A stretch of 63,887 bases of DNA, counting the filler, from Reclinomonas americana ATCC 50394 (Eukaryota), in NCBI GenBank assembly GCA_048213135.1. It is 4 parts of 3 records of this genome, joined end to end, with 100 filler letters (N's around TTAATTAATTAA, not from the genome) between each part and the next. Parts side by side here need not be neighbours in the genome. Positions count along the whole stretch, not along the records: positions 1 to 15,850 come from PS015084.1; positions 15,951 to 36,988 come from PS015084.1; positions 37,089 to 61,827 come from PS015085.1; 1 more part is not named here. The stretch is one strand, 5' to 3'. Under the pieces are notes generated by a model, which was not told where the DNA came from, searched no databases, and saw only the letters and a program-made list of their open reading frames with translations. Shown in pieces: positions 10,301-60,300 of this stretch (the first letter of the stretch is position 1; every line of letters begins with the position of its first letter). The position numbers and the translations under genes were made by a program.

Positions 10301-13300
10301 TGCAGTGCGACGCACTCTCTCTCTCTCTCTCTCTCTCTCTCTTTATCGCGTTCTTGATCTTTCCACCTGCACTCCTCCGGTCTGCCGGCTGCAGACGAAG
10401 CGTGTGGATTGCGGTACACTGCCTGCCGTTCACTCCTTCCTCATTTCCTGCCTACGCTCCTTGTATTTTGTGTGAAGTACTCTATCCCTTTTTCTTCTGT
10501 CCGTCCCCACCTCCTTCCCTTTTCTCCTCCCTCCCTTCTCTCACATCTTCCACCTTATTTGACCCACAGAACCAACTCGCCAAGTTCACCCGCGAATGGT
10601 CGTACGCCTTTTGCTCACGACAACCCCTCGACGACATTCGCAACTACTACGGCGAGCAAGTTGCTTTCTACTTTTCCTGGCTCGGTGCGCCACCTTTCGT
10701 TCGCATTTTCCCCCCTCCTTCTGCCTCTTACCATGTTTCCTCCAGGCTTCTACACCACGTGGCTCGTCATTCCGTGTGTGATTGGCTTGATCATCTTTGT
10801 CGTGGCGTTGCGTCTTCTGCTCACCTCCCATCCCTCCACCCACGTCGCCCTCACTTATCGCTACCCGCAGTGTGGCGCTGTACACCAAGGACTTCTTCGA
10901 CAACCCATTCGTGCCGTGGTACACCATCTTCCTCGTGATGTGGGCCACCCTGTTTGTGCAATGCTGGCGTCGAAAGACGAAAGAGTACGCGTTGCGGTGG
11001 GACATGCTGGAGTTCCACGAAAAGGTGATGCAAGTGGTGGGGGAGGGGGGAGGAAGTGAGGCGACGGATTCTGATATCTCTTTGGTCGTGCAGGAGGAAC
11101 TGAGGGACGCATACAAGCAAGAGGCAACGACGCGCGAGGTCAACTTTGAGAAGCTCATCTTCCAGCTGCCAATCCACCTCAAGGGCGAGGGCGGCAAACG
11201 CTACGAGTATTACATGCCGTTGCGGAGACGATTGTGCGCGTACATGGTTTCGCTGCCGACGCTGCTGGTGTTGGTGAGTGGTGGTCCTTGTTTGGCGGTG
11301 GTGATGTGCTGTTGTCTGAGGGCTGATGTGTTGTTGTGCAGACTGCCGCTGTCATCGTGTCCATCTTCTTTGTGGAGCGCTTCCGGTCGACGCGAATGGA
11401 CAGCAAGGGCAATCTGTCGCTGCTGGACTCGCTGTACGCCTCCCTCCTCAACACTGCCGTTATTATCATCTTCAACTTTGTTGCGTGGCTTTTGGCCGTT
11501 CAATGTGCTGGCTGCAAATTTTGTTGCTCACTGGTGGTGTGTGTTACAGTTGTATGTGGAAGTGGCCAAGTTCCTCAACGATCGGGGTGAGTGTGGTTGT
11601 GGGACATGCTTGATGAATCTTACTGTGACTGACGAATCGTGCGATGCGCAGAATTCTACCGCACGGACACTGAGTTACGCTGCAGTGACTGTGGCATTTG
11701 TTGCGCTGATTGTCTGCTGACACTCTTCTGCTTGTGTCTCTTTTGTTTGCGTGTTGTGTTCCTCCCTCTCTCTGTACTCTGCTCTTTCGCTGCCCCCCTT
11801 CTCTCGCTGTGCTCCCTTCTCGCTGTCCTCCATTCTCGCTGTCGTTTTCTGATCACGCTGTGCTCCATTCTCTCGCTTCGCTCTCTCACTCGCTTCGCTC
11901 TCTCACTCGCTTCGCTCTCTCACTCTCTCTCTCTCTCTCGCGCGCGCTTATCCATTGTGCTCCTATCTCTATTGTTGCTCCATTGCTTTCGTTGCTTTTT
12001 CCGCGTTTCTGTCTCTTTTCACTCGCTGTGCTGCCTTCTCTCTCATGCCCCATCGCTGTTCGCTGCACTTTCCGCGTTTCCGCTCCTGCCCTTCCCTACT
12101 CTCGCTGTGCTCCCACCTATTGCTATGCTTCCGTCCCCATTCGCCACTCCTCTCGCTATTGCTGCTCCCTCTCTCTTTCTCCCTCGCTGCCCCCTCCATC
12201 TCTCTTCCCTCTTCTCCCTATTCTCCCTCACAGGTACACCAACGCCCTGATTCTCAAGACGGTGCGTCTTCAGTGACTTCTCCACCCACTCCCCCTGCCC
12301 TGCTAACTTGTGTGGCCGCAGTTCGTGTTCCAATTCGTCAACTCGTACCTCCCGCTCTTCTACTTGGCCTTCTGGCCCGACAAGCGGCAAACCGGGCCCA
12401 TGCGCATGCGCCAGCTCTTCATCCAGCTCATCTCCATCTTGGCCATCAAGCAGTTCATCGGAAACATCAAGGAAGTGTTCCTGCCGTTGCGTCATTCGCG
12501 ACAACCTGCGAGACATCACTTGCGTGTCCCCTTATTCATCCTTTCCATTCAGTGTGGTCATGAAGCGCGTGCGAGGCTGGCTTGACAAGCGCCGTCGCAA
12601 GGGTCGCAAGGCCACGTCACCGACCTTCCTGGACCGCGAGTACGATCTGGCACCCTACGCCAGTCCGTTTGACGATTACCTGGAAATGGGTATGTCACGC
12701 CTCCCTCAATCTACCTCATTCCCTCCCTCCCTCTAGTGCTTTCTTTCTCTTTCTCGTTTATTTTTCTTTCTCACTCCCTCTCTCACACACGCACTTTTTC
12801 TTTCTCCCTGCCTCCTTTCTTTCCTTCCCTCTCTCTTGCTCTCTATCTCTCTCACGCTTTCTTTCTCCGCCCTCCCTCCTCTCTCTCTCTCTCCCTCTCT
12901 ATCACACACGCACTTTTTCTTTCTCTCTGCCTCCTTTCCTCTCTCTCTCTCCTCTCTTTCTGTCGCTCTCTTTCTTTCCCTCTCTCCCTCTCCTGCTTTC
13001 TTTCTCTTTCTCTCTCTTGCTCTCTATCTCTCACGCTTTCTTTCTCCTCACTCCCTCCCTCCCTTCCTCTTTCGCTCTTTCCTTCTTTCTTTTTCTCATT
13101 CACTTTCTCTTTCCCTCTCCCTCTCTCTCCCCGCTACAGTGATCCAATTCGGCTACACCACGCTGTTCGCCGCGGCGTTCCCTCCCGGCGCCTTCCTCGC
13201 CCTCATCAACAACCTATTTGAGATTCGTGTCGACGCCACGGCCTTGGTCGGCAGCAGCAATCGACCGGTGGCCAAGGGCGCCGCCAACATTGGCACGTGG

Positions 13301-28127: not shown

Positions 28128-28875
28128 ATTGGGAAAGGTGGGTGGAAAAGGAAGTGTGAATGCTGCGACGCAACGAGGATTTCGATCTCTTGACCCTCAT
28201 CAGCCTGCTGCAATACTAGCAGCACCAGGTCTTCGTTCTCATGGGTGTTTCACCACGGGTCGATAGTTGTGTGATACCAGGGCGTTTTGGACTCTGCTGG
28301 AAGGATCACGATTTGGCGAAACCAGCAACGCCAGCTTGCACACGCTTCGATCACGTGAGTGTTTCACCACGGGTCAATAGCAGGGGGCTCAGAGTCCACA
28401 GTACTGCATGACGCCAGGGTGAATAGGACGCCAGGGGATCACAATCAATTGATCTCGTGGGCCTGTGCGACTTAGCAGGGGACATAATCATGGATGCGAG
28501 GGTGCAGTTGCCATCGGGGGTGCACGATACAAGGCGAACAGGATACGCTGCAAAAGATCGAGGAACACCAACAACACAAGATTTTTCGATCACGTGGGTC
28601 TTTCACCTCGGCTCAATGGTCAGGATCTCCGAGCGTACAGCATTGCCGATGGGTGCATGGCAGCAGGGCGAATAGGGTGCAAGGAGGCCAAGGTTTGCTG
28701 AAAACCCAACACGAACGTCGGACATGCATGTGACTTCACCGCGCGACAACGATTCTTCGCACGATGAAGGAGATGGTCTAACCGAGCAAGTACTCGGCTA
28801 AACGGGTCTGTCACTGAGAAACCATGCTTGCTGAGTCGCGCGAAGTCCAATCACTTTTGCAGGACACATTCAATC

Positions 28876-29163
28876 ATGCGACTCTGCGCGTTCCTCGCAC
28901 TCCTCCTCGCTCTCGCCTCCCTCGCCTCTGCCGCCAGTCCACTGGTGCTCACCAAGTTCTCCGCGCTCGAGGTGCATTCTCCACTTCTGTTCTTTCTGCA
29001 ATTCCTTTACTCTTCTCAGCGACTCTCTCTGTCTTTACCCTCACAGGTTGCTCTCACTGGTGCGCGCTGCTTGGATGGATCGCCTGCGGGGTACTACTTC
29101 CGTCCCGCCACGAATAGCACAGATGCGGCCAAGTGGATCATTTATCTGGAGGGTGAGCAGTGA

Positions 29164-29219
<56 letters not shown>

Positions 29220-31770
29220 AGAGGAGAAGAGGGGTCCGTCATGCCACTCTGCTTCCCCAAGTTATATATGATCGCGGTACCTCTTGCTGCATTCGTTTCT
29301 TCTGGTGTTCGCATCACTCTATGATGGCATTCGGTCTCAGTCATGGTCTCTCTTACTCGTCCCTGACCATATGCCACTCCACTCATCAGTGCTGCCTCTT
29401 GTCGCATCCTCTTCCTCTTGCCCTCTCGTGTTTCACTCTCAGTCATGCTCCCTTGGGAGTTTTGCATTCTTTCAGTCATGCCTCTGGTGTTCGCGTCACT
29501 CTATCATGGCATTCGTTCTCAGTCATGTTCTCTCTTCCTCGTCCGTGGCCACATGGCACTCCTCTGTTCGTGGTGCCTCCTGCTGCATTCGTTGCCTCTG
29601 GTCATGACATCTGTTCTCACTCTTCCCTGGTCATTTGGCACTCCTCTCGGTGCCTCTTGCTGCATTCTCTTCTTACCTCTCTTCTGTCGCTCATGGCTTC
29701 CTCCATCACAGTGTTTCCCGTCATGCTCCCTTGGGGGTTTCTGCACTCCTGCTTTGTCACGTCTTTTGGATACCACTCTTCTCCTCGGTGCTGGCCGATG
29801 TGCATCTCGCTGCATCCTCTTGTCCTCTCATGGCTTCCTCTCATTTCATGCTCGTGGGGGTTTCTGCATTCCTGTCTTGTCGCTTCTTGTGCGTGCCACT
29901 CCTCTCGTCAGTGTTGCTCGTGGTGCCTCTTGTCGCACTCTCTTCCTCTTGCCCTCCCATGTTTGCTCTGCCATGCTTCGTTGGGTGTTTCTGCATTCTT
30001 TCACTCCTTCATTATCATGCCACTCTTCCTCCACTGTTCGCGTTACTTGATAATGGTATCTGTTCTTTCTCTTGTTCTCTTCCTCGTCCGTGGCCACATG
30101 GCACCCCTCCGATCGTTGTCTTGCCCTTCACGGCTTCCTCCGTCACGCGTTCTCCGTCACGCTCCCTTGGGGCTTCTGCATTCCTTCAGCATACTGCCAC
30201 TCTTCTACGCCGGTTATGTTGGGCTGGCTTCGTTTCCTCTACTTCTCTCACGGTATTCATGCTGCTCCTCCTTGTTTGTGGCTTGTGTTGCTTGCCATTC
30301 TGCTTCCCAATCCTGTTCTGCGTTGCTCTGCGCATTTTCATCCTGCATTCTTCATGTCTTGCTTCGTTGGTCCAACACCTCTTCCGTTTCTTCTCAGCCT
30401 TCTTCTGCTGGCATGATCATGCCCTCTCCAGATCTCTCTGTTTCTCCTCACTCCCCCACCCTCCCCCTTTCAGGTGGCGGCCTCTGCTACACCCCCAGCG
30501 ACTGCGCCGATCGCGTGAAGAGCGACCTCGGCTCCTCGACACACTGGAAAGACTCGCGACACGAAGGCAACCTGCTCTCCGACGACCCCTCCAAGAACCC
30601 CGACTTCTACCAATGGAATCACGTCTTTGTGCCATGTTCGTGCGCTCTGTCCCTCTCTCCCCTCTCCCCCCTCGCCTCACTCAATGGTGGTTGTTGTCGG
30701 CAGACTGCAGCGGCGACCTGCACTCGGGCCAGCGCCGCATTGTCGCCTTTCCACCGTTCCAGGACTTTTACTTTGCCGGCCACCTCATCTTGAGTGCCAC
30801 GCTGAAGCACCTGCGAGACTATGGGATCAGTGGTGCCGAGGAACTCATTCTCAGTGGCTTCTCAGCTGGCGGCATCGGCACGTTCACCAACGCCGAGTTT
30901 GTCGGGCAGCAGTTCCCGGAGGCGCGATACTCGATTGTGCCAATGGGTGGCTTCTTCCTGGACATTACGCCGTTCAACCCCATGGACGCTTCGATTGGCG
31001 TGTGGCTCTCGGCGGCTGCTGGTGAGTGAGGAGTTGTACTGGGGGTCGGTGGACGATTTGTTTGACTCGTTTCGCGTGCGCACAGCGCTGTATGACGCGT
31101 ACTTGCCGCCGTCGTGTGTGGAACAGAATGCCAATTGTTGCGTGCGGCTTGCTGGTCTCTGTTGCGTGCACGCACCACCTCTTCTTGACTCCTTTCCGCA
31201 CCAGTCACTGGCCGCTGCTACTGCTCCAACTGGTTGTATCCGTACATCAATGTGCCGACGTTTGTGGCGGAGAATCAGGTGGGCCTGGCAGAGAGTCAGG
31301 GTCTCTCTGTGCATGTGTCTGTCTGTCTGCCTGCTTGTATCTCCTCCTTTCACTCTCTGGTCTCCGTCTTCCTCTGAGCGTTTCTGGCAGTTGTGTGCGC
31401 TTCTCTTTCTCAGTTTCCTCTCCCCCATCCCTAAGCGTCTTTCTGTTCGCCTCACGATCGCGGGCCGTTGCTTTCAAATTGTAGACGGGGCTGCCACGTT
31501 GCCTGTGTGTCTGTCTCTGTCAGTCTCTCTCACACTTTCTCTCCTCTCTCGCCTTTCTTGCCCATTTCTCTCCATTTCTGTCAGACTGTGCCTTCGTGTT
31601 TCTGCCCTTCTTGCCTTCCTGCACCTGCCTGCTTGCCAAAGCGTCTCCCTTTCTTTCTATTTCTAGCGCTCCTTCTAGATATGTCGCCCTTGCTCCTCCC
31701 CGCCTCACGCCTTTCTTCCTTTCTCTTTCAGCCTATCTTCGTTTGCTTTGCCCTCGTTTCTGCATGCTCG

Positions 31771-31801
<31 letters not shown>

Positions 31802-32322
31802 TCTCTCTTACTCTGTCTCTTTCCCTTTCCCTTTCCCTCATCCCCTTCCCTCCCCACCCCCGCAGTACGACTCGAACCAGCTGTACGACCAGGACAATTG
31901 CCCAAAGGGCGACTCCGACGCCAGTCGCCAGTATGTGCAGTTCTTTGGCGAGCAGATGCGCGCCTCCCTGCAACACGTAATCGACAACCCGCGTGACGGC
32001 CTGTTTGCGCCCTCGTGCCTCAAGCACGATGTGGAGTGGAACTCGGTGATTGTCGGCGGCCAATCGTGGCGCACCGCCCTCGGGAATTGGTTCGTATTGC
32101 ATGCGCCCTTATTTGAGAATCTGCACTGTGCAACTCACGATGAGTTTGTGTGTTGCGCAGGTACTTTAGACGGTCTGGACCCACCAAGGTCGTGGGTGCG
32201 TTTACTTTTGTGGTAGTAGTGGGTGAATGCGTGCATGCCGTGCTCACACGTGGGGGTGCGCAGATACGTGCGGCGTGCTGCCGTGCACACCCAACTGCAA
32301 GCACCTCGAGCCGCCATTGTGA
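28876..32322 (+). CDS. Secreted pectin acetylesterase / Notum-family alpha/beta hydrolase
   Basis: Signal peptide MRLCAFLALLLALASLASA, then ARCLDGSPAGYY, KWIIYLEGGGLC, NPDFYQWNHVFVPYCSGDLHSG, nucleophile elbow GFSAGG, NQYDSNQL and FAPSCLKH. TGA 32320-32322. Confidence 0.93.
29230..30400 (+). repeat. Degenerate intronic tandem repeat in the pectin acetylesterase intron
   Basis: Repeated TCATGCTCCCTTGGG..TT.TGCATTC-like blocks. CTCTTCCTCGTCCGTGGCCACATGGCAC occurs twice (~29532 and ~30077). Confidence 0.75.
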
Positions 32323-32470
32323 TATTGAAGGACGACGTGGTCGCTTTATTCACCCAAAACATGTTGTGTACAGTGTGTTTCAAGTCGAAGCCCCAGCGAT
32401 TCGAATCCGAATTCACAATTGCAAGATTGAGTTGCAAATTGTCGAATTCAAAGCGACTCCGCAGTACGAC

Positions 32471-36480
<4,010 letters not shown>

Positions 36481-36844
36481 TGCAAAAGACGGAGGTAAGA
36501 AGGGGAAAGAGAATGCTGGCAGCTGTCACACCGTTTTTGCCTGTTTCTCCCTCACATCATCACTCGCCTTCTCGCAGTCTCACGTTCACCAAGTCTCTCT
36601 CTCTCTCTGTGTGTGTTGTCTCTGAATCGCTTGTGCACTCGCACCCAGCCTCACAGTCTCACATTGATTCAGCTGTCGCCCTCATATCTCTCTCTCTCTC
36701 TCTATGTCTATCTATCTCTCTCTCTCTCTCTCTCCGTGTGTTGTCTCTCGGAATCTCTTGTGCGCTCACACTCAGCCTCCCTCACATCTTCTCTCTCTCT
36801 CCTCACAGTCGTGCAATGATTCAGCTGTCTCCCTCACCTCTCTC

Positions 36845-36902
<58 letters not shown>

Positions 36903-37088
36903 CTCTCTCTCTCTACTCTCGCTCTACTACTACGTACTACCTACTCTACCTCTCCTACTCTCTCTACTCTCGGTACTCGTACGACGACNNNNNNNNNNNN
37001 NNNNNNNNNNNNNNNNNNNNNNNNNNNNNNNNTTAATTAATTAANNNNNNNNNNNNNNNNNNNNNNNNNNNNNNNNNNNNNNNNNNNN

Positions 37089-39242: not shown

Positions 39243-39563
39243 CTGATGGCGGACAGACAGAAACAGAGTGAGTGTGATGGTGGGCACAAGAGAGAGAGGG
39301 GGGAAGGAGAGAAGAAAGTGTGTGTGTGTGTGAAAGGGAGAGAATGGAACTCTCACCGTTGCTCGTCACTCGATTGATTTGTTCCTTGTTTGTGCGTTGT
39401 CAGAGACGACGGAAGAGTGTGTGCGCGCGGGAAAACAACGAAGCTCGTGCGTCGGTGATGAGCAGTCGATGCTTGGTGGGTGATTGATGTCAGAGAAATA
39501 AACGCGACTGACAGGACGATGCATTGGTTGCCTGCCACGCCACCGGGCGACTTGCCAGCTCAC

Positions 39564-41252
39564 TCACTCATCGTCTCCCCGCGCGAATTCCTCCGGCCCC
39601 CACCGCAACATCTCGCGAATGGCCCATTCGAGCCCCGCCGCCGCATTCACCACCGGCTTTGTGCGAATGCGCACCTCCAGCGGACCCTCCTCCATCACGC
39701 GCCGATCGGCCGCGGTGTGCCAGTCGAACATGGCGGGGTGTGTCGAGTCGAGAAACGGGTTCAGCTCAATGATCCACACGCGCTCCGCTGTCACCGCAAA
39801 GTCGACAATGTACCGATCGAAACCGTGGTCGCGAACACGCGGGTGCACCTGCAGGTGGTGGTGGAGAATATCAACAAACCAGGGGTGACGAGAGACAAGG
39901 CAGAGGAGAGAGGGAGGGAGGGAGAGAGAGGGAGAGAGAGAAGGAGAGAGAGGGAGAGNNNNNNNNNNNNNNNNNNNNNNNNNNNNNNNNNNNNNNNNNN
40001 NNNNNNNNNNNNNNNNNNNNNNNNNNNNNNNNNNNNNNNNNNNNNNNNNNNNNNNNNNNNNNNNNNNNNNNNNNNNNNNNNNNNNNNNNNNNNNNNNNNN
40101 NNNNNNNNNNNNNNNNNNNNNNNNNNNNNNNNNNNNNNNNNNNNNNNNNNNNNNNNNNNNNNNNNNNNNNNNNNNNNNNNNNNNNNNNNNNNNNNNNNNN
40201 NNNNNNNNNNNNNNNNNNNNNNNNNNNNNNNNNNNNNNNNNNNNNNNNNNNNNNNNNNNNNNNNNNNNNNNNNNNGAGAGAGAGAAGAAGAAGAAGAAGA
40301 AGAAGAAGACGAAGAAGAAGAAGAACAGGCCTGAAGCACAAGCACAGTGAGCTCATGGTGCTCTCTTCGCCCCTTGCAATCTCCTCTCGCTCACCTCCTT
40401 CTCGAAATAGTCGACCATGCGGCGCACCAGCTCGTCTCGCTGCGCCACCACGTGCGGAAAGTGGATCATGTAGTTGTACTGAGAGAGCGCGTTGAGGCGG
40501 CCGTGATTGACGAACCCGCGGAACTCCTGATCGACGTGCAGCGCGACCCAGGCGCGCACCACAAAGTTCAGCTGGTACTCCTCATCGCTCTGCTCCAGCG
40601 CCAACAGCAGGTCGTTGTGCACACGCTCGCTGTGCAGGAACGCCTCCATCACATCGCTGGCTTGCGACATCTTCAGCAGCTCCCCGTTGGCCTCCAGCAG
40701 CGCATACAGCTTCCCGTTGTCGTCGCTCGGATCAATGCCCTCGTCACGCACCACGCGGCGATACGCGCGACGAAACTTTGCGCTCCCAATCGACGCGTCC
40801 TTGGCGCTGCGCGACGACAAGCGCACAAACACCACCTGTCGCCCACACTCTGACAAATGCCCATACTCGTCCTTGACGCGCTGCATGGCCGCCTCCAGCC
40901 GCTCCTCCATGGCCGCACGTTTCTCTGCGAAATCGGCTGCACCTGTACTGTCCGCCATGGCGCGCGCCTCCTCACGCGACACGGGCACAAACACCGTGGG
41001 AAAGGTCACCTCGTCGCCCAGCAACGGCACCCAGTTCTCAATGTTGCACTGCAGCAAGTGGCGCGTGCGTGCCGCCACATCTTCGACGGTGACCTCGGAG
41101 AATCGCGGACGATCGTCATCAACGGCGCCGGCATCGACGTGGCGCAACGCCGAGCGCCCGGCTGTGAGCGCAGCAAGGAGACCCGCCTGTTGTGCTGCTG
41201 GCGGTGGTGGTGGTGGAGGAGGAGGAGGAGGTGGTGGTGGTGGCGCGGACAT
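39564..41252 (-). CDS. CDC123/D123-like (R2K clade) ATP-grasp protein with N-terminal poly-Pro + WH2 motif
   Basis: NIENWVPLL..TFPT, FVRLSSRSAKDA, EFRGFVNHGRLNALSQYNY and YIVDFAV...VWIIELNPF...AMFDW match CDC123-type ATP-grasp motifs. N-terminus is MSAP(n)AAQQAGLLAALTAGRSALRHV. One intron ~39853-40395 contains a gap. Confidence 0.88.
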
Positions 41253-41340
41253 GCGATGGTGGGACAGAGGGACGACAGCGCGCTGCAAAAACTGGCTCAA
41301 AAAAGGAGGGCATGAGCAGAGCTGTAATACACCAATTCGC

Positions 41341-43801
<2,461 letters not shown>

Positions 43802-43926
43802 CAATTCGCGACTTTGGTTTCCCGCTTTGCGAACCTCAAAGACGCAATATTAGACGTTGACAATTGCGCGGGACGAGAAAGGACACACCTTTTGTCACAC
43901 AAACAACTTTGCACGTCAAAACACAA

Positions 43927-45771
43927 ATGAAGGAGGGTCTCTTTGGTTGCTTCTCGGACTGCGGTACGTGCTGGCCCGCTGTATGTGTGTGTGTGGGCAG
44001 AGAACGAGAGAAAGAGAGAGAAAGGAGTGGAGAAACTTTTTGTGGGGGCGAAATGTCAACCGCCGCTTGTGAGAAAACGCCCCGCTCTTTGCAGTTTGCC
44101 TCTCTCTTTTCTTTGTTTATGTGCGTGTGTGTGTGCGGGTATTACGTGTGCGTACTGTTATCTGCAGCTCTTCCACCTACATAATGTGTGTATCTTGTGT
44201 GCATTCTGCGTGAGAAAGATGACTGTTTGGCAACTGTTTGTTTATTTGTTTGTGTCATGGTCATTGTCGACGAGCGCATTCGTCATGTTGTTGTTCATGA
44301 GGGCAAGAGCTCGAGTGCATTATGCTTTTTTCCGCATGTGAGATTGAGATGCAGATATTCGGTCACACTCACACACTCACTCATTCTGTGACTAAATGTG
44401 CGCAGGCATCTGCCTCTGCTCCACCTGCTGGTGCGCCGCATTTGTTTGCTTTTGTTTGTTTTTCCCAATCTCGAACATGTTACCTCATGCGTTGTGTACA
44501 TTTGGATTTTTCCCGCCCCCAGCTACCCGTGCCAGCTCGGCCGCAACGACTACGGTGGGACATGCATTGCGAGGAGGCAGAAAGCTGACACTCGCACGCG
44601 CAGAGAAAGAGAGAGTGTGAGAGAGAGAGCGAGACAGGGAGACGAGGGAAACCGGAGGCTTTTGTAGTGGGCTGGTGATCGAGCAGAGAGAGAGATGTAT
44701 GGGTATCTGGTGGGAGGCGGACAACATGAGAAAGAGAGTGCGCGTGTGAGCCTTTTGCTTACTTGACGTGTCTCCTTCCTCCACCGCCGCAGGTGTGAGC
44801 CAGCTGCAGGCTGGCCAGAAGGTCACCTATGGCGAGGGCATGATGGGCCTGCCTTGCATCCTCTGTGAGTTTCTCCATCCCGCTGCTCTGCTCACACACT
44901 AGTGTCTCACTCACTGTTCTCCACACTCACAGCCTGCTGCTGCACGCCGGTTGCGTCTGTCGTTGATGCGATGTTTCTTTTCCCAATGTTGAATGCTGAC
45001 CGTGCGCTGTTTACTTTGGTGACATTGTCGTCGTTGTCGTCGGACAGTACGTTGCGTTACCTCGCTCTCTCGGGATTCGTCGCCTGGATTGTGTGCTGAC
45101 TGTTGTGTTGTGACGCGTGTAGGCGTTCTACCTGACGTGCTGCAAGCACCCGCAGGCGGTGCGCGTGGCTCTGAAGGAGGAGCCCGGCTCATGCGTTGGC
45201 GATTGTCTCGTCGGTGTGTGGGAAGAAGAGAAGGGGGAAGGGGGACAAGGAGGGAGAAGTGATGTCGGTTTAGCTCCCTGCTCTGGTGCCTTGCTTTCCG
45301 TCTCAGTGTGTTGATCGTGTCGCGTGTACGTCGTCGGCGAAGAGATTCAGCTCTGTGTCTGTCTCTCAGACTGCTTGTTCCATTGTGGGTTTTGCCCATT
45401 CACCTCCTCCGCTTCTCGTGTCTTGTTGTCTCTCCCCTCTGTGCTGTTTGCATGGTTGCTCGTGTCGGTAACCTTCGCCTCCTTGTGTCTCTCTCCTGCT
45501 CTCTCGTCTCTCGCTTGACTGCGCATGTAGGCATATGGTCCGTGGGTTTCAGTCTGTTCTCTCTTTCTCTCTCTTCCTCTATCGGGCTGCGTGTGTTCCT
45601 TGTGATGATCCTTCTCCGTTTTGTGGATTCTATGTCTCGCTGTCCACTCACACTCTCAAGATGCTTGTGTTTTTTTTCGCTGGAGTTCTAACTCTCTTGT
45701 GCCGTCTCGTTCTCTGTCTCTCAGACTGCTTGTGTTGGTGTGCCCTCTCCTCCTCTTCCTTCTCTCTCTCC

Positions 45772-45849
<78 letters not shown>

Positions 45850-45935
45850 CTCTCTCTTCGTCTCGTCGTCGTCGTCGTCGTCGTCGTCTCGTACCGTCTC
45901 GTACGTCGTACGTNNNNNNNNNNNNNNNNNNNNTC

Positions 45936-45999
<64 letters not shown>

Positions 46000-46055
46000 A
46001 CTACTACTACTACTCTCTCTGTGTGTTTCTTTTCTCTCTCTCTCTCTCTCTCCTC

Positions 46056-46109
<54 letters not shown>

Positions 46110-46244
46110 CTCTCCCTTCTACTCTATCCCTCACCCCCATTCCCCACAGGCTGGCTGTGCTTCTGCTGCCGCAACGCCCAGATTGGCCGCGAGCTCAAGC
46201 TGCACGCCCCCTCGGCCACCCAGACTGGCATGACGGGCCATTAA
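43927..46244 (+). CDS. PLAC8-family Cys-rich protein, tandem copy 1 (8 small exons incl. a putative 3-nt exon)
   Basis: Spliced: MKEGLFGCFSDCGICLCSTCCYPCQLGRNDY...LPCILSCCCTP(Y)AFYLTCCKHPQAVRVALKEEPGSCVGDCLVGWLCFCCRNAQIGRELKLH. TAA 46242-46244. Confidence 0.92.
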
Positions 46245-46647
46245 AAAGCGCCCCCTGTTTGTGTCGACTCCAGCCACAGTGCACGTGTGCTGCTGCTGCT
46301 GCTGTCAACCCTCCACTCCCTTTACTCTTGACCCCCTCTACGGGCACTCCTCTCCCAACACCCAACCTTTTTTTCCCCCATACCTCAACTATATAAAGTG
46401 TGGATGTGTGCGCCGACGTACCCGAGCAGAGTGTGTGTGTCCCCGATCCTATTGCGCATGCACCCTGCTGTTTGGTACCGTTACTGTGTCACGGCGGACA
46501 AAGGCGACACAAGAGAATGAAAGTGGCTCGACGGGAGCACAAGGAGAAAGTGGTGGATCGCGAGGAGGGCGGGAAAGGGTGAAAGTGCGTGGCCACGAGC
46601 ACGGAGGCGGACAATACAGCATCTCTCGTCGTTGAGCGAGGAAAAGA

Positions 46648-47843
46648 ATGAAGGAGGAGCTTTTTGGTTGTTTCTCGGATTGCGGTGCGTGCTGTTCGCG
46701 GCATTGATGAGTGGTATGAAGAGGGACGAGAGGAAACGCGTGCTGCTCGTGTCTTGCGTGTGTGCGCCCAGCGCGGGGAATGTCACCGCCACACTTTTTG
46801 AAAAAACGCAGCACACTTTTGTGTGGCTTCGTGTCACTCGCAGCGGTACACCCAGTGCCTTTGTTGTATATGAGTGCCTCTTTCGCGATGGGGACGGAGG
46901 AGAGATGCACAGATTCAGTGACTGCGTGCTCATACGTTGTCTGCGACAGGTGGCTGCCTGTGCTCCACGTTCTGGTTTGTTTTTCGTGTCTGCAACACTC
47001 CCATCTACAACGATCTGCGCAGGAAATGCTGATGATTTTGTTCGCCCATTTTTTCGCGCCATTTAGCTTTGCCTGCCAGGCGGGCCGCAATGACTTTGGT
47101 GAGTGGCGCATGAACATGCGTGTACAACAAGGGAGCGCACGGCAGCTTACTACTTTTTGTTCCCGCGCGGTAGCCATGGAGGAGCTGCAAGCTGGCCGTG
47201 GCAAGGACACTGAGTACGGCCAGGGCATGATCGGCATTCCCTGCTTCCTCTGTGAGTTTGATTGCGTCCTCGCTTGCATCACACATGCGAAGCAGTGTCC
47301 TTACTTCCTACGACCCTCACAGCTTGGTGCTGCACACCGGTTGCGTTGATATATTTCCGACTGATATCGATTGTATTTCTTCGCGGCTGTTCTCTGACTG
47401 TGGCGTTCTTGCTGGCGTTACTATCTTCCGACAGTTCGTTGCGTGACAACTGCGAAGCTTGCAGCTGGATTTGCGCAACACGTGCATGGGTGTACATGTA
47501 TATGTGCTGACACCGCCCCTGTTTTGTGGTTTCACGATCAGTTCTACTACCTGATTTGCTGCAAGCATCCGAAGGCCATCCGCGAGATTATGAAGGAGGA
47601 GCCCGGTACATGCATGGGCGACTTCCTCGTCGGTTCGTTGCTAGCTGAGAGTGTGCAGAGAAGCATCATTTGGGTTCTCTGCATTTCCTTCCTATTTTTC
47701 TCTCTTTTTTTATGCAAGCGTGTAATTCACTGACCACTCATGCACATGTAGGCTGCTTCTGCTGCTGCTGCCGCAATGCCCAGATTGGCCGCGAGCTCAA
47801 GATGCACGCTCCCTTGAAACAACGCACCGGCATGGGCCACTAA
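46648..47843 (+). CDS. PLAC8-family Cys-rich protein, tandem copy 2
   Basis: MKEELFGCFSDCGGCLCSTFCFACQAGRNDF...WCCTP(F)FYYLICCKHPKAIREIMKEEPGTCMGDFLVGCFCCCCRNAQIGRELKMH. Same intron positions as copy 1. Confidence 0.92.
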
Positions 47844-48052
47844 ATGAGCCACGCACGGTAGTTTCTGTCTGCGAGTGCACGAGGTGTCAGATGTCGCTCA
47901 AAACGGCATCACTGCGCTTGTCCACTCCACCGCACCTCCCTTTCAACTCTTGACTATTTTGCGCCACTTTCCGTTCTCTCGTATCAAAAACATGAAAATG
48001 GAATATGTGTGCAATCCTCCACTGCTTGTGTGGTGTCTCCTCCTTCATCAAA

Positions 48053-48122
48053 GGGCACTTAGCTTAATGGCGGAGCACCTGCACCTGGCGGGAGGTCGTC
48101 GGTTCGAGTCCGGCAGTGTCCT
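48053..48122 (+). tRNA. tRNA-like gene/pseudo-tRNA (Ala-like acceptor G3:U70, aberrant 5-nt anticodon loop)
   Basis: Acceptor GGGCACT/AGTGTCC; D arm GCTT-AATGGCG-GAGC; anticodon arm CCTGC-ACCTG-GCGGG; variable loop AGGTC; T arm GTCGG-TTCGAGT-CCGGC. A and B boxes are intact. Confidence 0.75.
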
Positions 48123-48129
48123 TGCATAT

Positions 48130-48175
48130 CGACTGAGATCGTAGGTCTCGGTCGCCCCCCTTTTTGTTATTTTTT
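48130..48175 (+). terminator. Hairpin followed by oligo-T (likely Pol III terminator) downstream of the tRNA-like gene
   Basis: CGACTGAGATC-GTA-GGTCTCGGTCG (11 bp with 2 G:U) at 48130-48154, then TTTTT at 48161-48165 and a second T run. Confidence 0.6.
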
Positions 48176-48323
48176 GTGCACCACCCTTGACACCCCCTAC
48201 CATCTGCGTGGAGTCCCACCACTGCCTAGGTGCCAGCAACGTGCTGCGGAATGCAGAGAACGGGCGACATTTCAGTTGTGAAGAGGAGCCAAAAAAGGAA
48301 CTCGCAACCAAAATATTGGTTCA

Positions 48324-53111
<4,788 letters not shown>

Positions 53112-53732
53112 GACGGAGTGGAAAGTGACTGAAGGGACAGCAACGAAGTCCTGCACTTCGATGGTCTCGAGGTTTGCTATGACCAACAGCTGTTCTTTGA
53201 TAGCTGCTTGAGCAGATAGACATCAAAGAACGCTGAGTGAAGCACCAGCTGTCACTTGCTGCTTCCCATCAAGCAGCAGCAAATCCAGAGTTGACCGGCT
53301 GTCTTGCAAAGGTCGTAGCTTCCAGAGACGCTCCGGCAGTCAGGGTATTGACAGGGCCGCCGGGCACGATACCGCTTGGTGTGTGAAATCCGGATTTCCA
53401 TCACGGTTTCGTAATACGATCGGAGTCTTCACACTCTCCTCTCGTTTTGCACTTTCTTTCCTGTTGAAAGAAACCAAGTGAACTCCCGTCATTGTGTTGA
53501 CTCTGATCGTTCACGTCGAAAGGGTGCTGCAGCAGCCAGGCAGTCTGTCCACAGTACCTTTTGCGGAGCGCACCGCTCCATGTCCTTCACGACTGCCTCG
53601 TTCGTGAAGTGACCCTCGACCCATGGGTTGACAGTCCCGCCTCGCCAGCACCAGCAGTCTTCCGTCAGCCGCCCTTCCCTCTTCACAAACACAACACAAC
53701 AATTACCGATTTACCAAACTACACCGCCGCGA

Positions 53733-56700
53733 TCATCTCGGCTGATCGTCGTCGTCATGCGGCAGTAATCTTGTCTCCGCAGTCGGCGGCTCGTGGTGCA
53801 CCGACTGCATGGCGGGCGGGTTGCCTTGCGTGTTGAGGAAGGGTTCATGCAGCGTGCCGCCTGGCGACTTGTCGCGGTTGCGACGCTTCACGATGAAGTT
53901 GCCGAGGGCGACGAGGATGCGAAAGGCGAATCCACAACCTGCGTGGTGCACACGAGATGAGATGGCGTAGGATAATAGGAGACAGCACCCAGGGAACACT
54001 CACCGCCAGCAATGCCGATGAGCGAGCCAAAGTACTCGCTGAGAGTCGTCGGTGTCTGTATGCGAGAGAGGAGTGAGACTCTAAACGAAGAAAGAGTGAG
54101 TCCCTGGAGTGTCGCGAACCTCGGCAAAGCTGCAGCACACAATCACAAGAGGAGCAGTGTGAGTGAGTGCACGGATTCACTTGCATGTAGAATGCACAAG
54201 GTCACGCACTTGAGGTACGTCGGCGAACTGGAACTGACGAGAATCGTGACAGCGGCCTCGGGTCCAAACGCCTTGCCAAGGTTGCCCTGACTGACTTGGA
54301 AGCTGTGTGGAGCCGAAGTCAGGCACAATCGACGTCACGCAAGGCGGCGTGCAGCGCAACTCGAATTCGGTGAATGACTTGCCACTGTTCTGGTACTTGT
54401 ACACATTCGGGTTGATCAGCACCACGTTCTCCGAGCCAACGTTGAGGGAGACGCCGGTCATGCCCTGCGGCTCGGCAATCACCGCCTTCCAACTCCACTC
54501 CGTGTACGGGAGGCCGTTGGTGTCCTGCAAAGATGTCAACTTGGCAGGCGGGAGGAGACGGCGCGTGGTGCGTTCATAAACACACCGGCGTGGGCGGAAT
54601 GGTGAGGGTGGCGGGGTCGAGACCGTTCTTGGGAGTAAAGAGGAACATTTGCATGGAGCTATTTGTCATGACGTTCTGTACGGAGGGGAGTGAGTGAATA
54701 AGAGAGAGACAGAGAGAGAGAGGGCAGCGTGAGGCACGGGAGGCTCACATTGGTGTCCTTGTTCAGGCCGACAATGACCCACGTGCGCGATTGCAGCGAC
54801 GCCGAGTACGACAGGCGCGGTTGGAACAGGTTGACGTAGTAGCAGTAGACGTTGACTGAGCAAAGGGAAGTGAGTGCCGGAGGGTGAATACGAGGATAGG
54901 GGGCACATTACGCACCCGTGGCAGTCGCGCCGTGCGAGATGGTGCCGAGATACGAGGCCTGCGAGATGCTCGGCCATCTGTGTGAAGCAGGGAGTGAGGA
55001 TAAACGAAGGGAAGGAGGAGAGGTAGAGGGGGGACAAGAGGAGGAGAAGAAGAACAAGGAGGGAAGAATAAGAAGAAGAAGAAAAAAGAGCAGGGGGAGC
55101 AGCAGCAGCAGCAGGAGGAGGAGGAGGAGGAGGAGGAGGAGGAGGAGAGTAACGCACACAAGGTCGGCTTCGCAAGCAGTCAGGCTGCCGAAAACATTGG
55201 TGGTGGCGCAGTACATGGGCGGGATCTGTAGAGAGATGATGAGCGCACGGCGTGGCAGCAGCAGAGAAGGTGAGAAACGCACCAGGCTCGCGTCGACCAC
55301 GGTGTCGGGGGCGTAGAGGCACACGGCAAAGGCAGGGAATGGTACCTCTGCGTAAACGGGGGAAGGGGGTGAGGAGATGGTGTGGAAAGGGAGTTGGAGA
55401 AAAGAGGAGGAGGAGGAGGAGGAGGAGGAGGAGAAGGAGAAGGAGAAGGAGGAGGAGGAGGAGAAAACAAGAAGAAGGAGGAGGAGAAGAGGGGAAAAGA
55501 AGAAGAAGAAGAATTCAGAGAGAGGAGGAGAAGAGGGGAAAAGAAGAAGAGCAAGAACAGGAAGGAGAAGAAGAAGACGCCGAAGAGCAAAACAAGAACA
55601 AGAACACGATGAATGCAAGAAGAACAAGAGAGGAGCAGAAGTCAATGATGAAAACAAGAAAACAACAGAAGAGAGGAGGAGAAGGAAGAGGAAGATAAAC
55701 AGGATAAACGGAAGGAGAAGAAGAACAAGAACTCGAAGAATGCAAGAAGAACAACAAGAAACAACAGAGGAGAAGAGGAGAAGGAAGAGGAAGATAAACA
55801 GGGAGGTAAAGAAGAAGGAGAAGAAGAAGACGCCCAAGAACACAAAGAATGCAAGAAGAACAAGAAAGAGAAGCAGAAGCCAAGCATGAAAACAAAAGAG
55901 GAGAAGAGGAGAAGGAAGAGGAAGATAAACAGGAAGGAGAAGAAGAAGAAGAAGACGCCGAAGAAATACACGAAGAAAACATGAAGAATGCAAAGAAGAA
56001 CAAGAAGGAGAAGGCAGGGAAGAAGACGAACAAGAAGGAGATGCAGAAGTCAATGATGAAAACAAAAGAGGAGAAGGAAGAGGAAGACAAACAGGAAGGA
56101 GAAGGAGAAGACGCCGAAGAGCAAAAAAAACAAGAAACAAGGAGGAGGAATGAACAGAGACCGAACAGATCAGTCACTCCCTCTCCCTCCCCCTCTCCCT
56201 CCCCCTCTCTCTCCCCTCTTCAACACACCACTCGTGAGCGTCAAGGGCGTCACAGTCCACGGAGGCAGATTGCGCGACTGCACAAGACGACTTGACACAT
56301 TCTCAGTGAGCGACACACACACAAGAGACTAGACAGTGAGTGAAAGTGAGCAGCAGAACTCTGTGTAATAGCCAAAGAAGCCGATGAAAACGGCTGCGGA
56401 GATGATGAGCGGGAACCATCTGTGTGTGAGAGAGAGAGAGTGAGTGAGTGTTAGATGCGACTGTGCGTGATCTCGACGCAACAATGTAAGTGTTCTGTTG
56501 GTTACGCATGAGCAGCGCACATTGGAGGAAGTTGCAGTCATTCCTCTCTCTCTCTCTCTCTCTCTCACTGAGAGGCCGGCCTGAGTTTCCAGACACAGGA
56601 CACTTCTCCGCTTGTCGCAGACGGATGGGTATCAGCACGCACTTGTGTGCTATGTATCTATGACAGCGATCTCAATAACATGGCACTTTGTGTTTGGGGA

Positions 56701-56982
56701 GAAACGTCGATCGCGACGTCGACACACAGTATCTTCGACGTCGACGTCGGTGTACACAGCGGCTGCCTTGATGGCCAAGTCTACCTGCAAACAATTTATG
56801 CACCTTCGTTTTATGATTACCACTTGTCCTCTCCGCGCAGTTGATCGCTGCTTGTGGAACTTTTGAATTGGCCAAGGAAAAATAAAATTCGATTTCTCCT
56901 GCTCCGTACCGTCGTCAAGGGCAAAGATAGCCGTGGTCGGGGCCGCACTTGCATCAGCGGCAGGCATTCCTCTCTCTGCCAT
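53733..56982 (-). CDS. Two-TM membrane protein resembling the DEG/ENaC/PAC (TMEM206) channel superfamily, compact ectodomain
   Basis: Hydrophobic TM1 WFPLIISAAVFIGFFGYY, then PPWTVTPLTLTSEVPFPAFAVC (FPAxTxC-like), a beta-rich ectodomain, pre-TM2/TM2 IQTPTTLSEYFGSLIGIAGGCGFAFRILVALG and a short hydrophilic tail. 5' exon junctions are partly unresolved. Confidence 0.6.
55500..56150 (+). repeat. Purine-rich degenerate intronic minisatellite
   Basis: GAAGGAAGAGGAAGA(T/C)AAACAGG x4 and GCAGAAGTCAATGATGAAAACAA x2. Confidence 0.8.
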
Positions 56983-57343
56983 TTTCAGGCACACATTGAC
57001 TCTTTGCAGTTCATTCGTTCGATCGCAACTGCCGTTATTACTTACGTCTTCAAACACACGCACACGCGCACACACACACACATGCTCTCCGGTGGGTGCA
57101 TGCTGATGCGTGCGTGTGTGATTGCCTCGTGTTGATTCATGTTAATGCACAGCAAGCAACACCGCCGCCACGCTGCGAGAGGAAGACGCGGGAAAAACGA
57201 TGTTTCTGGGCGGGAATGCATGCGCAATGATACACTTGCCCTCGCGAGTTGTGACGAGGAACACAAGGCGGTGTGTATGTGTGTGTATGTACGCATGTCG
57301 GTCGCTGATGCACTCACCTTGGTCACTGATGCACTCGTTTGTA

Positions 57344-60300
57344 ATGTCGCCTGACTTGCGCATCTTCCAGCTGCGTCCTCCGCCTGTCGCGACGGCCTCC
57401 TTGTGCTCCTCGAATCGTCGTGCTAGGCGGTGGTTGTGGCGCCTCCCGATCCGTCCCTTCCCCGCGTCCACCTGTTACTGCTGTAAAGTACGAAGTGCCC
57501 TCCCCAGCGGCACCCACTCTGCAGCCTCCTTCCCCTCGAGCTCTGGCATCGAATCCACCGCTGCAGCAACAGGCGGACGCCCTCCACGAGGCCAGCACCT
57601 TGCCACCACGTCAGCCTCCTTCCCCTCAGCCGCCCGAGTCGCCGCTGCACCAGCAGGCGGACCCCCTTCCCGAGGCCAACTGCTTGCCTCCACCGCCCGC
57701 TCTTCCGCCTCCAGCCCCTCAGCCGCCCAAGTCGCCGCTGCAGCAAAAGATCGACGCCCTTCATGAGGCCAACACCTTGAAGGCCATTCTTCCACTGGCT
57801 GGCGATCCGAGCAACTTGTCGACGCTGGAGTGCCTTGTTGCGTTCATCGCTGACGACACACACGCACACGCACTTAGTCACCCATCATGCACACGACNNN
57901 NNNNNNNNNNNNNNNNNNNNNNNNNNNNNNNNNNNNNNNNNNNNNNNNNNNNNNNNNNNNNNNNNNNNNNNNNNNNNNNNNNNNNNNNNNNNNNNNNNNN
58001 NNNNNNNNNNNNNNNNNNNNNNNNNNNTCTCCCTCCCTCTCTCTCTCCTCACATTCTCTCGTGCAGCTGCTACTCATCAATACGGTGGTGCTACTGCTGG
58101 ATGGCTACGACGAGTGTGACCAAGCACCCGGAAACTTGTATGTCACCCACGAACTGCACGTTGCGTGAAAAGCATTCACATACTGGTAGCTCATATCGCT
58201 TCTCACTGCTGTTGCACAGCTGTGGCCAAACATCCTTCTCGTCGTGTCTGTTCGACGCGAATTCATCAGCCGCCTCGGCAACTTGTGGGCGGAGAGTCAC
58301 TTTGTGCCAGTGGACCCTGCGATGTCGCGCGCTGCACGACTTTATGAACCCGAGTGCACGCTGGCACGATGCATGCTTCGTTTGTTCTCCAAGGACGACA
58401 TCGATCTCTTTCTGCAAAAGTTGAACAATCATGCCGAGTTCATGTCGTGAGACAAGCGCAAATGCTAACGTCTGCGTACAGGTTTGTGGAGTCGCGCGTG
58501 GATCATCCGCGCACCTGGCAGCAGTACAAGCGGCAGATTGAGCGCACACCGGGACTGGAAGGACTTGCGCCTTCGGTGAGTTAGCACTCAGTAGAAGGAG
58601 GACAACACGGTAGTGGGAATTGTTTTCTCACATTTTCTTAATCACGCAGCCACTCATGTTAAACATGATTGTTCTGGTCATCGAAGATCTGGAGCGTCTG
58701 ACCCAGAGGCGCAACGGCGGTGCGTCGATGACTCGAGTAACGCGTACACGACTGTATGAGGCATTCGCGAAACACAAGCTGCAGTGGGAGTTCGAGCATC
58801 ACAATGCGCACATTCGTCAGGTGTGCATGTATCTGCTGGCGTTTGTTTGTTTGTGGTGAGATGTACGAAATCCTTAGCTGTATCTGTGCGATGCGCAGCT
58901 GTATGGCGACGATATCTCGGAGGAGGATTTCAGTCTGCGGGTGTGGGACTTGTGCTCGGACCTGGCGGGTGAGATGATGCTGCACTCGTTGACGTCGGTG
59001 CGGCAGGGCCAGCTCGAGGTACGTGGCTGTAGCGTGTGGTTGAGTCTCTCCTTTCCCCTCCCGCGAGTTTGCCTTCTCTTTTGCTCACGCGGACCGCACT
59101 TTCGTGTATCCGGCGCCGCAGCGCACACAAAGAGCTGTCGCGGAGCAGCATTTGTGGAACAAGTGGTTTGATCGAGATGATGCGTTGCAGAACTCGGTCG
59201 TCCGTGCTGTTGCGTCCGTTCAGTTGGAGAAAATTCATCACTTCTAGTCCCCGTGTCTCACCCCCCCTATGCAGGCACTGCTCAAGTGGAGTCTGTTGGG
59301 AGTGTCGCAGCAACGCGTGGAGTTTATGCACAAATCGGTGCTAGAGTACTTTGCCGCGCAGTCGTGGCTCGCTGATGTGCAAATGCTGGCCCGTGGCGAG
59401 ATTGAATTGGAGGTCAGTGATGTGCTTTTGCCTGTTCTTCTGCATGAATCCTCATCCCTATCCAAATGTGCTGTCCTCTGCAGGATCGTCTTGACAGGCT
59501 GTGCTGCAGCTTGAGTGGTCAACGTACGCTGCTCACATCAGATGAAGTGAGCAACTTTTGTATTTTATTAATCACGCGCGCTCGCCTCGCCACTCATGTC
59601 TGAACCCGCAGGCGCTCAACTCCGTCCTTTCGTTCGCGGCCGAGCAAGTGCGCACTGAGCCGGCACTGCAGGACGTGTTGTGGAGTGCGATTGCACTGTC
59701 GCAGACGGAGGAGAGGGTTGCGGCAGTGGCATCGAGTGCTGCCAGTGCACTGTGTCTTGCCGAGGTCCCGTTCAGCGGACGAGGCTTGTCGGGTGTGCGA
59801 GTGTCGGGCGCAGATCTGAGAGATGCCGTGATGCACAAGACGGTGTGGACGGCAGCCGATTTACGAGGTGCGAATCTTGGCATGGCGTTTGCACGAGGGG
59901 CAGACTTCAGGGATGCGATACTGGAGGGCACCAAGTTTCCCCCCAAATCATTGCAAGGCCACACGAGGGAGGTGCGTGCGCTGGCTGTGACACCCGATGG
60001 CCAGCACATTGTGAGCGGCAGTCCAGACATGACAATACGGGTGTGGTCGGTGGCAAGTGGCGAGGAGGTGCGCCGGTTGGAGGGCCACACAGAAGATGTT
60101 TACGCCCTGGCAGTGACACCGGATGGTCAGCACGTTGTGAGTGGCAGCCTTGACATGACTGTACGGGTGTGGTCACTGGCAAGTGGTGCTGAGGTGCGCC
60201 GACTGGGAAGCCGCATGGGTGCAGTGACTGCAGTGGCCGTGACTCCCGATGGCGAGCACGCTGTGTGTAGCTGCTTGGACAAGACTGTACGAGTGTGCTC

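Follow-up and report, generated by a model that had tools for sequence, protein, structure and literature searches.

A displaced class of predicted 5′ splice sites, GTTGCGT, among the introns of a Reclinomonas americana nuclear genome segment

A segment of the genome of Reclinomonas americana ATCC 50394 (assembly GCA_048213135.1; hereafter the window, meaning the whole stretch of 63,887 nucleotides analysed, filler included) is eukaryotic nuclear DNA in which two kinds of predicted 5′ splice site occur side by side. Ordinary donors are of the GTGCGT, GTGAGT, GTACGT and GTTCGT types. The donors of the second kind (class B) are of the GTTGCGT type, with the consensus displaced by one base, and they make up roughly 11–25% of the introns in the window. 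Since U6 pairs with the G at +5 in the catalytic spliceosome, that G has been regarded as lying at a nearly constant distance from the cleavage point, and displaced registers have so far been a small minority of human sites, nearly all of them concerning U1. Class B appears to be an abundant variant of a 5′ splice-site recognition that is already known, and rare, in humans. The window contains 57,610 non-N bases with a G+C content of 56.3%; the other 6,277 bases are N, in 24 runs. Home-made parsers find in it about 20 genes on both strands and about 106 introns with a median length of 73 nt, which mostly end in CAG and have a branch motif of the CTSAC type some 17–20 nt upstream of the exon. 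The recognisable genes include those for an anoctamin, a pectinacetylesterase/Notum-like protein (PF03283), a WD40 protein and a D123 protein.

The word GTTGCGT is clearly enriched in the window. It occurs 27 times on the two strands, compared with 7.98 ± 2.89 times in 100 dinucleotide shuffles (largest count, 16) and with an expectation of 9.3 under an order-3 Markov model. Enrichment is confined to T as the extra base: the counts for GT+N+GCGT are 27 for T, 13 for G, 6 for C and 4 for A. In the gene spans given by a parser without a donor model, 18 copies are on the sense strand and one is on the antisense strand, the other 8 being outside (binomial p = 7.6e-5). Downstream of 15 of the 27 copies, compared with 8 of the 41 copies of GTTGCG[A/C/G], there is a branch-like CT[CGA]A[CT] with a YAG after it, placed so as to give an intron of 45–130 nt (Fisher p = 0.0036). 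Seven copies are not donor-like (1352, 28174 and 48965 on the minus strand; 14655, 14951, 15704 and 31161 on the plus strand), and since seven is about the chance expectation, the excess of about 19–20 equals the number of donor-like sites. It might be argued that GTTGCGT is simply a frequent coding word of the Val-Ala type, or a repeat, and that the gene models are wrong. The home-made models are indeed imperfect, and four of the sites form two paralogous pairs that are not independent, but this explanation is very unlikely: the enrichment holds against both the dinucleotide and the order-3 controls, the sites stand at exon-to-intron transitions in three phases with a strand bias of 18:1 and intron-like modules downstream, and three of the junctions are fixed by homology.

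An earlier note on this DNA had listed 15 frame-preserving donors with a displaced consensus, and all 15 positions carry the letters that it gave: GTTGCGT at 11 of them (10807, 11480, 12486, 15637, 31137, 44950, 45051, 47340, 47438, 58160 and 59209), GTTGCGA at 16275, GTTGAGT at 25827, GTTACGC at 11674 and GTTTCGT at 15434. Donors were then chosen by a Viterbi parser that combines a three-periodic coding model, an intron-content model skipping the first 10 intron bases and an acceptor matrix, with the donor defined as GT only. This donor-agnostic version replaced a codon-only parser, which was too weak, and was itself replaced by a version with a donor model. From coding content and frame, the donor-agnostic parser selected GTTGCG donors at 10807, 12486, 18006, 23242, 54360, 57837 and 58160. 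Parsing of this kind cannot tell neighbouring in-frame GTs apart, and the parser slid past 11480, 31137 and 59209 to the in-frame positions 11498, 31155 and 59218; small exons and one whole paralogue were also missed. For the 66 introns lying between solid exons, 245 frame-compatible GTs were enumerated: 33 introns have a candidate of the GTNNGT type only, 7 of the GTT-NN-GT type only, 4 have both and 22 have neither. Each of the 7 reads GTTGCGT or GTTGAGT, while the 22 are mostly GTGCGC, GTGAGC or GTGAGA and also include the GTTGCGC at 54360. Class B thus accounts for at least 7–11 of the 66 introns in this donor-agnostic set, and for about 20–26 of about 106 in a fuller count from the donor-model parse and manual reading. 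Roughly a sixth to a quarter of the introns seem to begin in this way.

The presence of a second register was also assessed with an expectation-maximization (EM) model in which the same matrix for positions +3 to +7 may be read after one inserted base. The log-likelihood rises from 53.0 with one register to 80.1 with two, a gain of 27.0 log units, and the estimated share of class B is 0.27, with T (0.61) or C (0.30) as the inserted base. Among 40 shuffled data sets the largest gain is 12.4 and the mean 4.4, and placing the insertion after +4, +5 or +6 gains just 5.3–7.7.

The anoctamin gene, located by a homologue search (tblastn) at about 9.4–14.0 kb on the plus strand, has four class-B donors beside ordinary ones. 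Its nearest homologues are 44–56% identical, and oomycete and insect proteins are among the nearest, at about 40–44%. The four introns are 10807..10870 (GTTGCGT...CAG, 64 nt, phase 2), which the donor-agnostic parser found and which is fixed within ±3 nt; 11480..11549 (GTTGCGT, 70 nt, phase 0), whose donor is the only consensus-like frame-compatible GT; 11674..12233 (GTTACGC, 560 nt, phase 2), preceded by a 22-nt exon at 11652–11673; and 12486..12552 (GTTGCGT, 67 nt, phase 2), which the donor-agnostic parser found and at whose first base the tblastn matches to homologues end. An exhaustive protein search from one anoctamin exon gave 150 relatives, of which 56 with 550–1100 residues were aligned into a profile, and spliced variants of the gene differing at one junction were scored against it with the AG acceptor held fixed. 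With its donors set at the GT of each GTT site, the gene model reaches 543.9 bits and has 525 codons with a terminal stop only; the gene is stop-free only with these exons. Moving the donor 3 nt downstream costs 6.3 bits at 11480, 7.8 at 11674 and 5.9 at 12486, and moving it 3 nt upstream costs 8.4, 10.3 and 12.4 bits, respectively. Other in-frame GTs at the three junctions lose 12.6–36.9 bits (at 11480, 12.6 for the GT at +18 and 24.2 for that at −21; at 12486, 14.0 at −9 and 36.9 at −33). At six ordinary junctions, which served as controls, a shift of ±3 nt costs 4.4–13.4 bits. The predicted donors at 11480, 11674 and 12486 are thus fixed to the exact GT without any assumption about donor sequence. 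The junction at 10807 is neutral to a shift of 3 nt in either direction (−0.4 and +0.9 bits) because it lies in a variable loop, and other in-frame GTs there lose 23.8 and 40.0 bits.

These scores bear on whether the introns might instead be of the GC-AG type and start 3 nt downstream (GTT/GCGT), which would keep the frame at every GTTGCG site. In a variable loop the gain or loss of a single residue hardly shows, as the cost of only 0.4 bits at 10807 illustrates. Even so, we give this reading hardly any credence: it incurs the downstream costs given above at the other three junctions, it would make the intron at 11674 begin with AC instead of GC, it needs a conserved GTT at exon ends in three codon phases, and it leaves introns that start GCGTNN without a G at +5.

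What distinguishes the two classes was examined in 26 class-B donors (16 from the donor-model parse and 10 identified by eye) and 38 ordinary ones. Class-B donors have T at +3, G at +4 (24/26), C at +5 (22/26), G at +6 (26/26) and T at +7 (24/26). Their core is GCG in 22 cases and GAG in 2, compared with 18 and 12 of the 38 ordinary donors (Fisher p = 0.012), so that 22 of the 26 read GTTGCG(T/C), whereas ordinary donors are diverse. The preceding exon base is G in 3 of the 26, compared with 21 of the 38 (Fisher p = 5e-4), and is otherwise T (11), A (7) or C (5). Both classes have a minor form in which C replaces T at the last conserved position, as GTGCGC at 10685 on the plus strand and as GTTGCGC at 54360 on the minus strand, and this pair supports one signal in two registers. 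What the earlier note had claimed is borne out in part: the donors keep the frame with the G and T of +5 and +6 moved to +6 and +7 (seven having been picked by the parser without a donor model and three fixed by the profile), they coexist with ordinary donors of all four types in the same genes, they form a major class in the window, and the exon base before them is seldom G. The note erred in describing each site as the local consensus with an extra T, since the class consists almost solely of GTTGCG(T/C); GTTGAGT makes up 2 of the 26 and has just 5 copies in the window as a whole. With that correction, the putative GTTGCGT donor class and its abundance in the window are confirmed at the level of sequence.

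Downstream of the donor the two classes look alike. Within their final 50 nt, 17 of 24 class-B introns and 22 of 38 ordinary ones have a branch-like CT[CGA]A[CT], the median distance from branch to exon is 17 and 20 nt, the acceptor is CAG in 18 of 24 and 32 of 38, and the pyrimidine fraction is 0.70 and 0.69, respectively. Class-B introns occur in all three codon phases; those listed here all start with GT and end with AG, and the spliced models read through. In their ends, frame, branch and pyrimidine tract, these predicted introns have the properties of U2-type GT-AG introns. The like 3′ signals, together with the sharing of genes, suggest that the same machinery serves both classes. The U12-type intron, with the donor consensus /RTATCCTT and the branch consensus TCCTTAAC, was considered and rejected, the donors being GTTGCGT and the branches CTSAC as in ordinary introns. 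A family of introners or mobile introns was likewise rejected: in an all-against-all blastn comparison of 25 class-B introns, matches were confined to the first 9–10 nt, apart from one of 14 nt at an intron start with 92.9% identity (12486 versus 4755), and to (CT)n runs. Because no sequence past the intron start is shared except (CT)n, these introns do not form a repeat or introner family.

How would such a donor be recognised? The 5′ end of standard U1 is ACUUACCU, and the standard U6 box is ACAGAGA. What we say of U1 and U6 at class-B sites is inferred throughout. In the model proposed here, class-B introns would be GT-AG introns of the ordinary kind, spliced out by the major spliceosome, and GU-U-GCGU would be a discrete second donor class, equivalent to GUGCGU plus one U, with the conserved G and U at +6/+7 and not at +5/+6. 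In the shifted register, G+1 would face C9 of U1, U+2 would be mismatched with C8, U+3 would pair with A7, and G+6 and U+7 would pair with C4 and A3. Pairing with one U bulged out at +2/+3 would be a nearly equivalent alternative. The shifted register is favoured because the consensus, though displaced, is otherwise identical and because G is not preferred at −1. Depletion of the −1G fits it since G+1 would take the place opposite C9, and is not expected of a simple bulge since a −1G would still help there. The specificity for T as the extra base (27 versus 4, 6 and 13) does fit a bulge, and the frequency of the −1G (3/26) fits the shifted register better. Cleavage would still occur at GU, and for this reason U6 should also be displaced or tolerant: the C and A of ACAGAGA might pair with G+6 and U+7 one base further from the cut, or an unpaired U might be tolerated near the active site. 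We give an even chance to the reading in which the GTTGCGT sites are genuine 5′ splice sites bound by a conventional U1 in a register shifted one base downstream. We hold more tentatively to a broader proposal, which may well prove wrong, that the genome uses two fixed 5′ splice-site registers, in which about one fifth of the introns would have both U1 and U6 displaced by one base (with the cut six, not five, bases upstream of the G paired to ACAGAGA) or would be served by a dedicated second U1/U6 pair.

Several points weigh against a conventional U1 in a shifted register. All the junctions are predicted ones, and the class counts pool sites picked without a donor model, with one and by eye. 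In the EM analysis, insertion after +3 (GTT+G+CGT) gains 20.6 log units, not much less than the 27.0 given above, so that the extra base can be placed only approximately. The nearest-neighbour duplex energy with the human U1 end, which may not be the host's, averages −1.49 kcal/mol for class B (n = 24) and −5.44 kcal/mol for ordinary donors (n = 38); such pairing is near nil, and a standard U1 alone looks too weak. The uniformity of class B (22/26 GCG) is unexpected if the same matrix is merely shifted, and points faintly to a dedicated partner. According to the study that treats the U6 register, no case in which U6 pairs one base further from the cut has been described (PMC11162779).

Some of these points would be accommodated by a dedicated variant snRNA, that is, a second U1, and perhaps a second U6, matching GUUGCGU without shift or bulge, so that two parallel modes operate within the major spliceosome. 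The near-invariance of class B beside diverse ordinary donors, its negligible pairing with the human U1 end, the acceptance of T as the sole extra base and the rarity of the GAG core all speak for it. We nevertheless think such an snRNA rather unlikely. A scan of the window with Rfam at gathering thresholds detected no snRNA gene (U1 or U6), only a tRNA; the 3′ signals match those of ordinary introns, so that at most 5′ recognition could differ; and the lack of −1G is already explained by a standard U1 in the shifted register. Another idea is that U1 contributes little, and that a protein or the tri-snRNP (U5/U6/Prp8) reads UGCGU in short, intron-defined introns, with the nearest upstream GU being cut. 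In the part of one study available to us, U1 is described as marking the region roughly while U5 and U6 fix the cleavage site (PMC11162779). An ordinary GTGCGT without −1G is also weak with U1 (−2.6 kcal/mol for a model site with the human U1 end), a TGCGT core is common to both classes, and the introns are short with strong branch and acceptor signals. This idea is improbable, as on its own it leaves the requirement for T as the extra base unexplained, and no such factor was identified in the window.

Non-canonical registers of U1 have precedents in human cells. A shifted (+1) register at atypical human 5′ splice sites was reportedly described by Roca and Krainer in 2009, and a register with a bulge at +2/+3 is said to have been added by Roca et al. 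in 2012. As far as the accessible parts of the reports go, both registers have been validated in human cells (PMC4856993; PMC11162779); the validated non-canonical registers together account for 1.5% of 201,541 human sites (PMC4856993), among which the bulge sites number 68 (+2/+3) and 51 (+3), well below 0.1% (PMC4856993, Table 3). Class B resembles the human shifted register in its consensus displaced by one base (G and U at +6/+7), poor canonical pairing and predicted cut at GU, and in showing no preference for −1G, as would be expected of that register. It differs in that the human sites are rare exceptions, whereas class B constitutes a sizeable share of the introns in the window and has a near-invariant GTTGCGT of its own. 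With the human +2/+3 bulge it shares the sequence type, in which an additional U separates GU from an otherwise normal consensus, and the T-specific extra base; unlike class B, in which −1G is seldom present, that register would gain from a −1G. With regard to U6, the normal cut is five bases upstream of the U6-paired G, and the sole exception reported in the accessible part of the source, the tandem donor of STAT3, has the cut one base closer, at four bases, in that single gene (PMC11162779). Class B would likewise depart from five bases, its U6 role being conjectural, but with six bases and in many introns. The Mamiellophyceae (Ostreococcus and Micromonas) have GTGCGT as an ordinary donor and a CTGAC-type branch, as here, but the available sections of the two studies describe one canonical consensus plus weak introns in AT-rich outlier chromosomes, with no GTTGCGT class (PMC2483917; PMC3879977), and nothing places the window in that group. 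A search of the literature by the motif words returned one unrelated preprint, and among the papers listed by a search on bulged or non-canonical U1 pairing in protists or intron-rich species none dealt with such a class beyond humans; neither covered a genome paper of this organism, if there is one.

If either the displaced register or the dedicated pair is real, this genome would provide a naturally occurring example, across all its genes, of a geometry known only as a rare exception for U1 and unreported in this direction for U6. It would offer a natural system for studying the slack in the active site between GU and the U6 helix, and for asking whether variant snRNAs partition introns. There is also a practical side: gene finders with a single donor matrix will mis-call class-B introns, and the donor-agnostic parser itself often slid to the next in-frame GT, so that annotations of this genome and its relatives may hold systematic small errors.

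The remaining putative class-B introns are scattered through the window. Three belong to a small Cys-rich gene on the plus strand. The first, 15434..15497 (64 nt, phase 0), has the class-B-like donor GTTTCGT and was read by eye, ...CCSFFCPC/VQLGRN... being in frame across it. The second, 15637..16202 (GTTGCGT, 566 nt), spans an N linker and comes from the donor-model parser only, with its frame read by eye. The third, 16275..16346 (72 nt, phase 1), has the class-B-like donor GTTGCGA and is suggested by frame and paralogue alignment: its phase and its place relative to the Cys cluster match those of introns at 45214 and 47621 in the paralogues. The alternative for this last intron, favoured by both parsers, is the in-frame GTGTGT at 16287. 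On the minus strand, 17620..17677 has a GTTGCGT donor called by the donor-model parser and an acceptor 58 or 45 nt downstream, with a branch motif followed by AG, and 17943..18006 (GTTGCGT, 64 nt, phase 1), found by the donor-agnostic parser, has only this one consensus-like frame-compatible GT. The GTTGCGT donor at 23242, also on the minus strand, is common to all three parses, and its acceptor is uncertain, giving an intron of 71 nt (23172..23242) or one of 1228 nt that spans an N run. The intron 25827..26306 (480 nt), on the plus strand in a C2H2 zinc-finger-like gene, has the GAG-core donor GTTGAGT, the only consensus-like frame-compatible GT, and is also called by the donor-model parser.

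The pectinacetylesterase/Notum-like gene contains the intron 31137..31204 (+; GTTGCGT, 68 nt, phase 1), which appears in two parses and is flanked by exons matching PF03283; a word-index protein search with an exon of this gene returned no homologue, and one with an anoctamin exon returned a single match. At the start of this intron there are two copies of GTTGCGTGC on the plus strand, at 31137 and 31161, 24 nt apart and in frame, and the two may act as alternative donors, with a difference of 8 codons. Two introns on the minus strand, 36015..36079 (GTTGCGT, 65 nt, phase 2) and 54303..54360 (GTTGCGC with C at +7, 58 nt, phase 2), have EM posteriors of 0.91 and 0.98; the former is called by the donor-model parser and has the branch CTCAC and a TAG acceptor, and the latter was selected by the donor-agnostic parser. 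Towards the end of the window on the plus strand, that parser also selected 57837..58066 (GTTGCGT, 230 nt), which spans an N run and has a single frame-compatible GT, and 58160..58219 (GTTGCGT, 60 nt, phase 0), for which the EM posterior is 0.99. The intron 59209..59274 (+; GTTGCGT, 66 nt) is a probable member of the class (EM posterior 0.72) with in-frame rivals in GTCCGT at 59200 and GTTCAGT at 59218, the parsers having chosen 59218.

Four more GTTGCGT sites are candidates. That at 4361..4421 (+, 61 nt, branch CTGAC, CAG) is in a region where no gene was called, and its excision would, by arithmetic, fuse the open frames 4078–4392 and 4400–5125. That at 56420..56482 (−, 63 nt, branch CTAAC, CAG) lies near the 5′ end of a gene in which the parsers took a competing GTCGAG at 56477 with the same acceptor. 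Two others on the minus strand are outside called genes: 144..273 (130 nt) is proposed from the motif, a branch and CAG only, and the weak candidate 4673..4755 (83 nt) from the motif, CTGAT and TAG only. Between the anoctamin gene and the first Cys-rich gene, where no convincing gene was called, GTTGCGT follows ATCT at both 14655 and 14951 on the plus strand; these copies may belong to introns in untranslated regions.

The small Cys-rich genes number three, all on the plus strand, at 15371–16508, about 44790–46244 and 47170–47843, the last having been missed altogether by the parser. They carry CCxxxxCPC and CCCPCC-type clusters and look like one family, with one predicted intron position common to all three. 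They may be PLAC8-like; a Pfam search with four of their short exons found no match. In the two tandem paralogues, a trinucleotide stands between two GTTGCGT units, each of which was read by eye and is complete with a GTTGCGT donor, a CTGAC branch and an AG, the first unit ending in GACAG. Paralogue A (44950–45122) has 44950..45047 (98 nt), which ends before the TAC at 45048–45050, and 45051..45122 (72 nt, branch CTGAC, TAG), which starts after it. Paralogue B (47340–47541) has the same layout, with 47340..47434 (95 nt) ending before the TTC at 47435–47437 and 47438..47541 (104 nt, branch CTGAC, CAG) starting after it. The trinucleotide is either a conserved 3-nt microexon or part of one longer intron with an internal recursive-like site (173 nt, 44950–45122, in paralogue A), and both arrangements keep the frame.

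Metagenome loci supplied five further relatives of the anoctamin, 35–49% identical to it; they are too distant for orthologous introns to be compared, and counts of GTTGCGT in them are uninformative. An intronless relative is encoded on metagenome contig L001 (65% G+C; 4719–6140, +), and it aligns without a break to residues 4–478 of the spliced, 12-exon anoctamin of the window with 32% identity.

The three linkers at 15851–15950, 36989–37088 and 61828–61927 are identical, each consisting of 44 N, TTAATTAATTAA and 44 N, where TTAATTAATTAA has stops in all frames. They look like artificial contig joins, across which order and distance may not be real, and two of the three fall within predicted introns or genes. 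The tRNA gene is at 48053–48122 on the plus strand (RF00005, 44.2 bits) and adjoins the end of a minus-strand S9-peptidase-like gene. Long (CT)n runs occupy several introns, for example at 15780–16150. Within gene spans, GTGAGT is found 81 times on the antisense strand and 23 times on the sense strand, an excess that, judged by eye and not counted, apparently comes from the CTCA/CT repeats that fill sense-strand introns.

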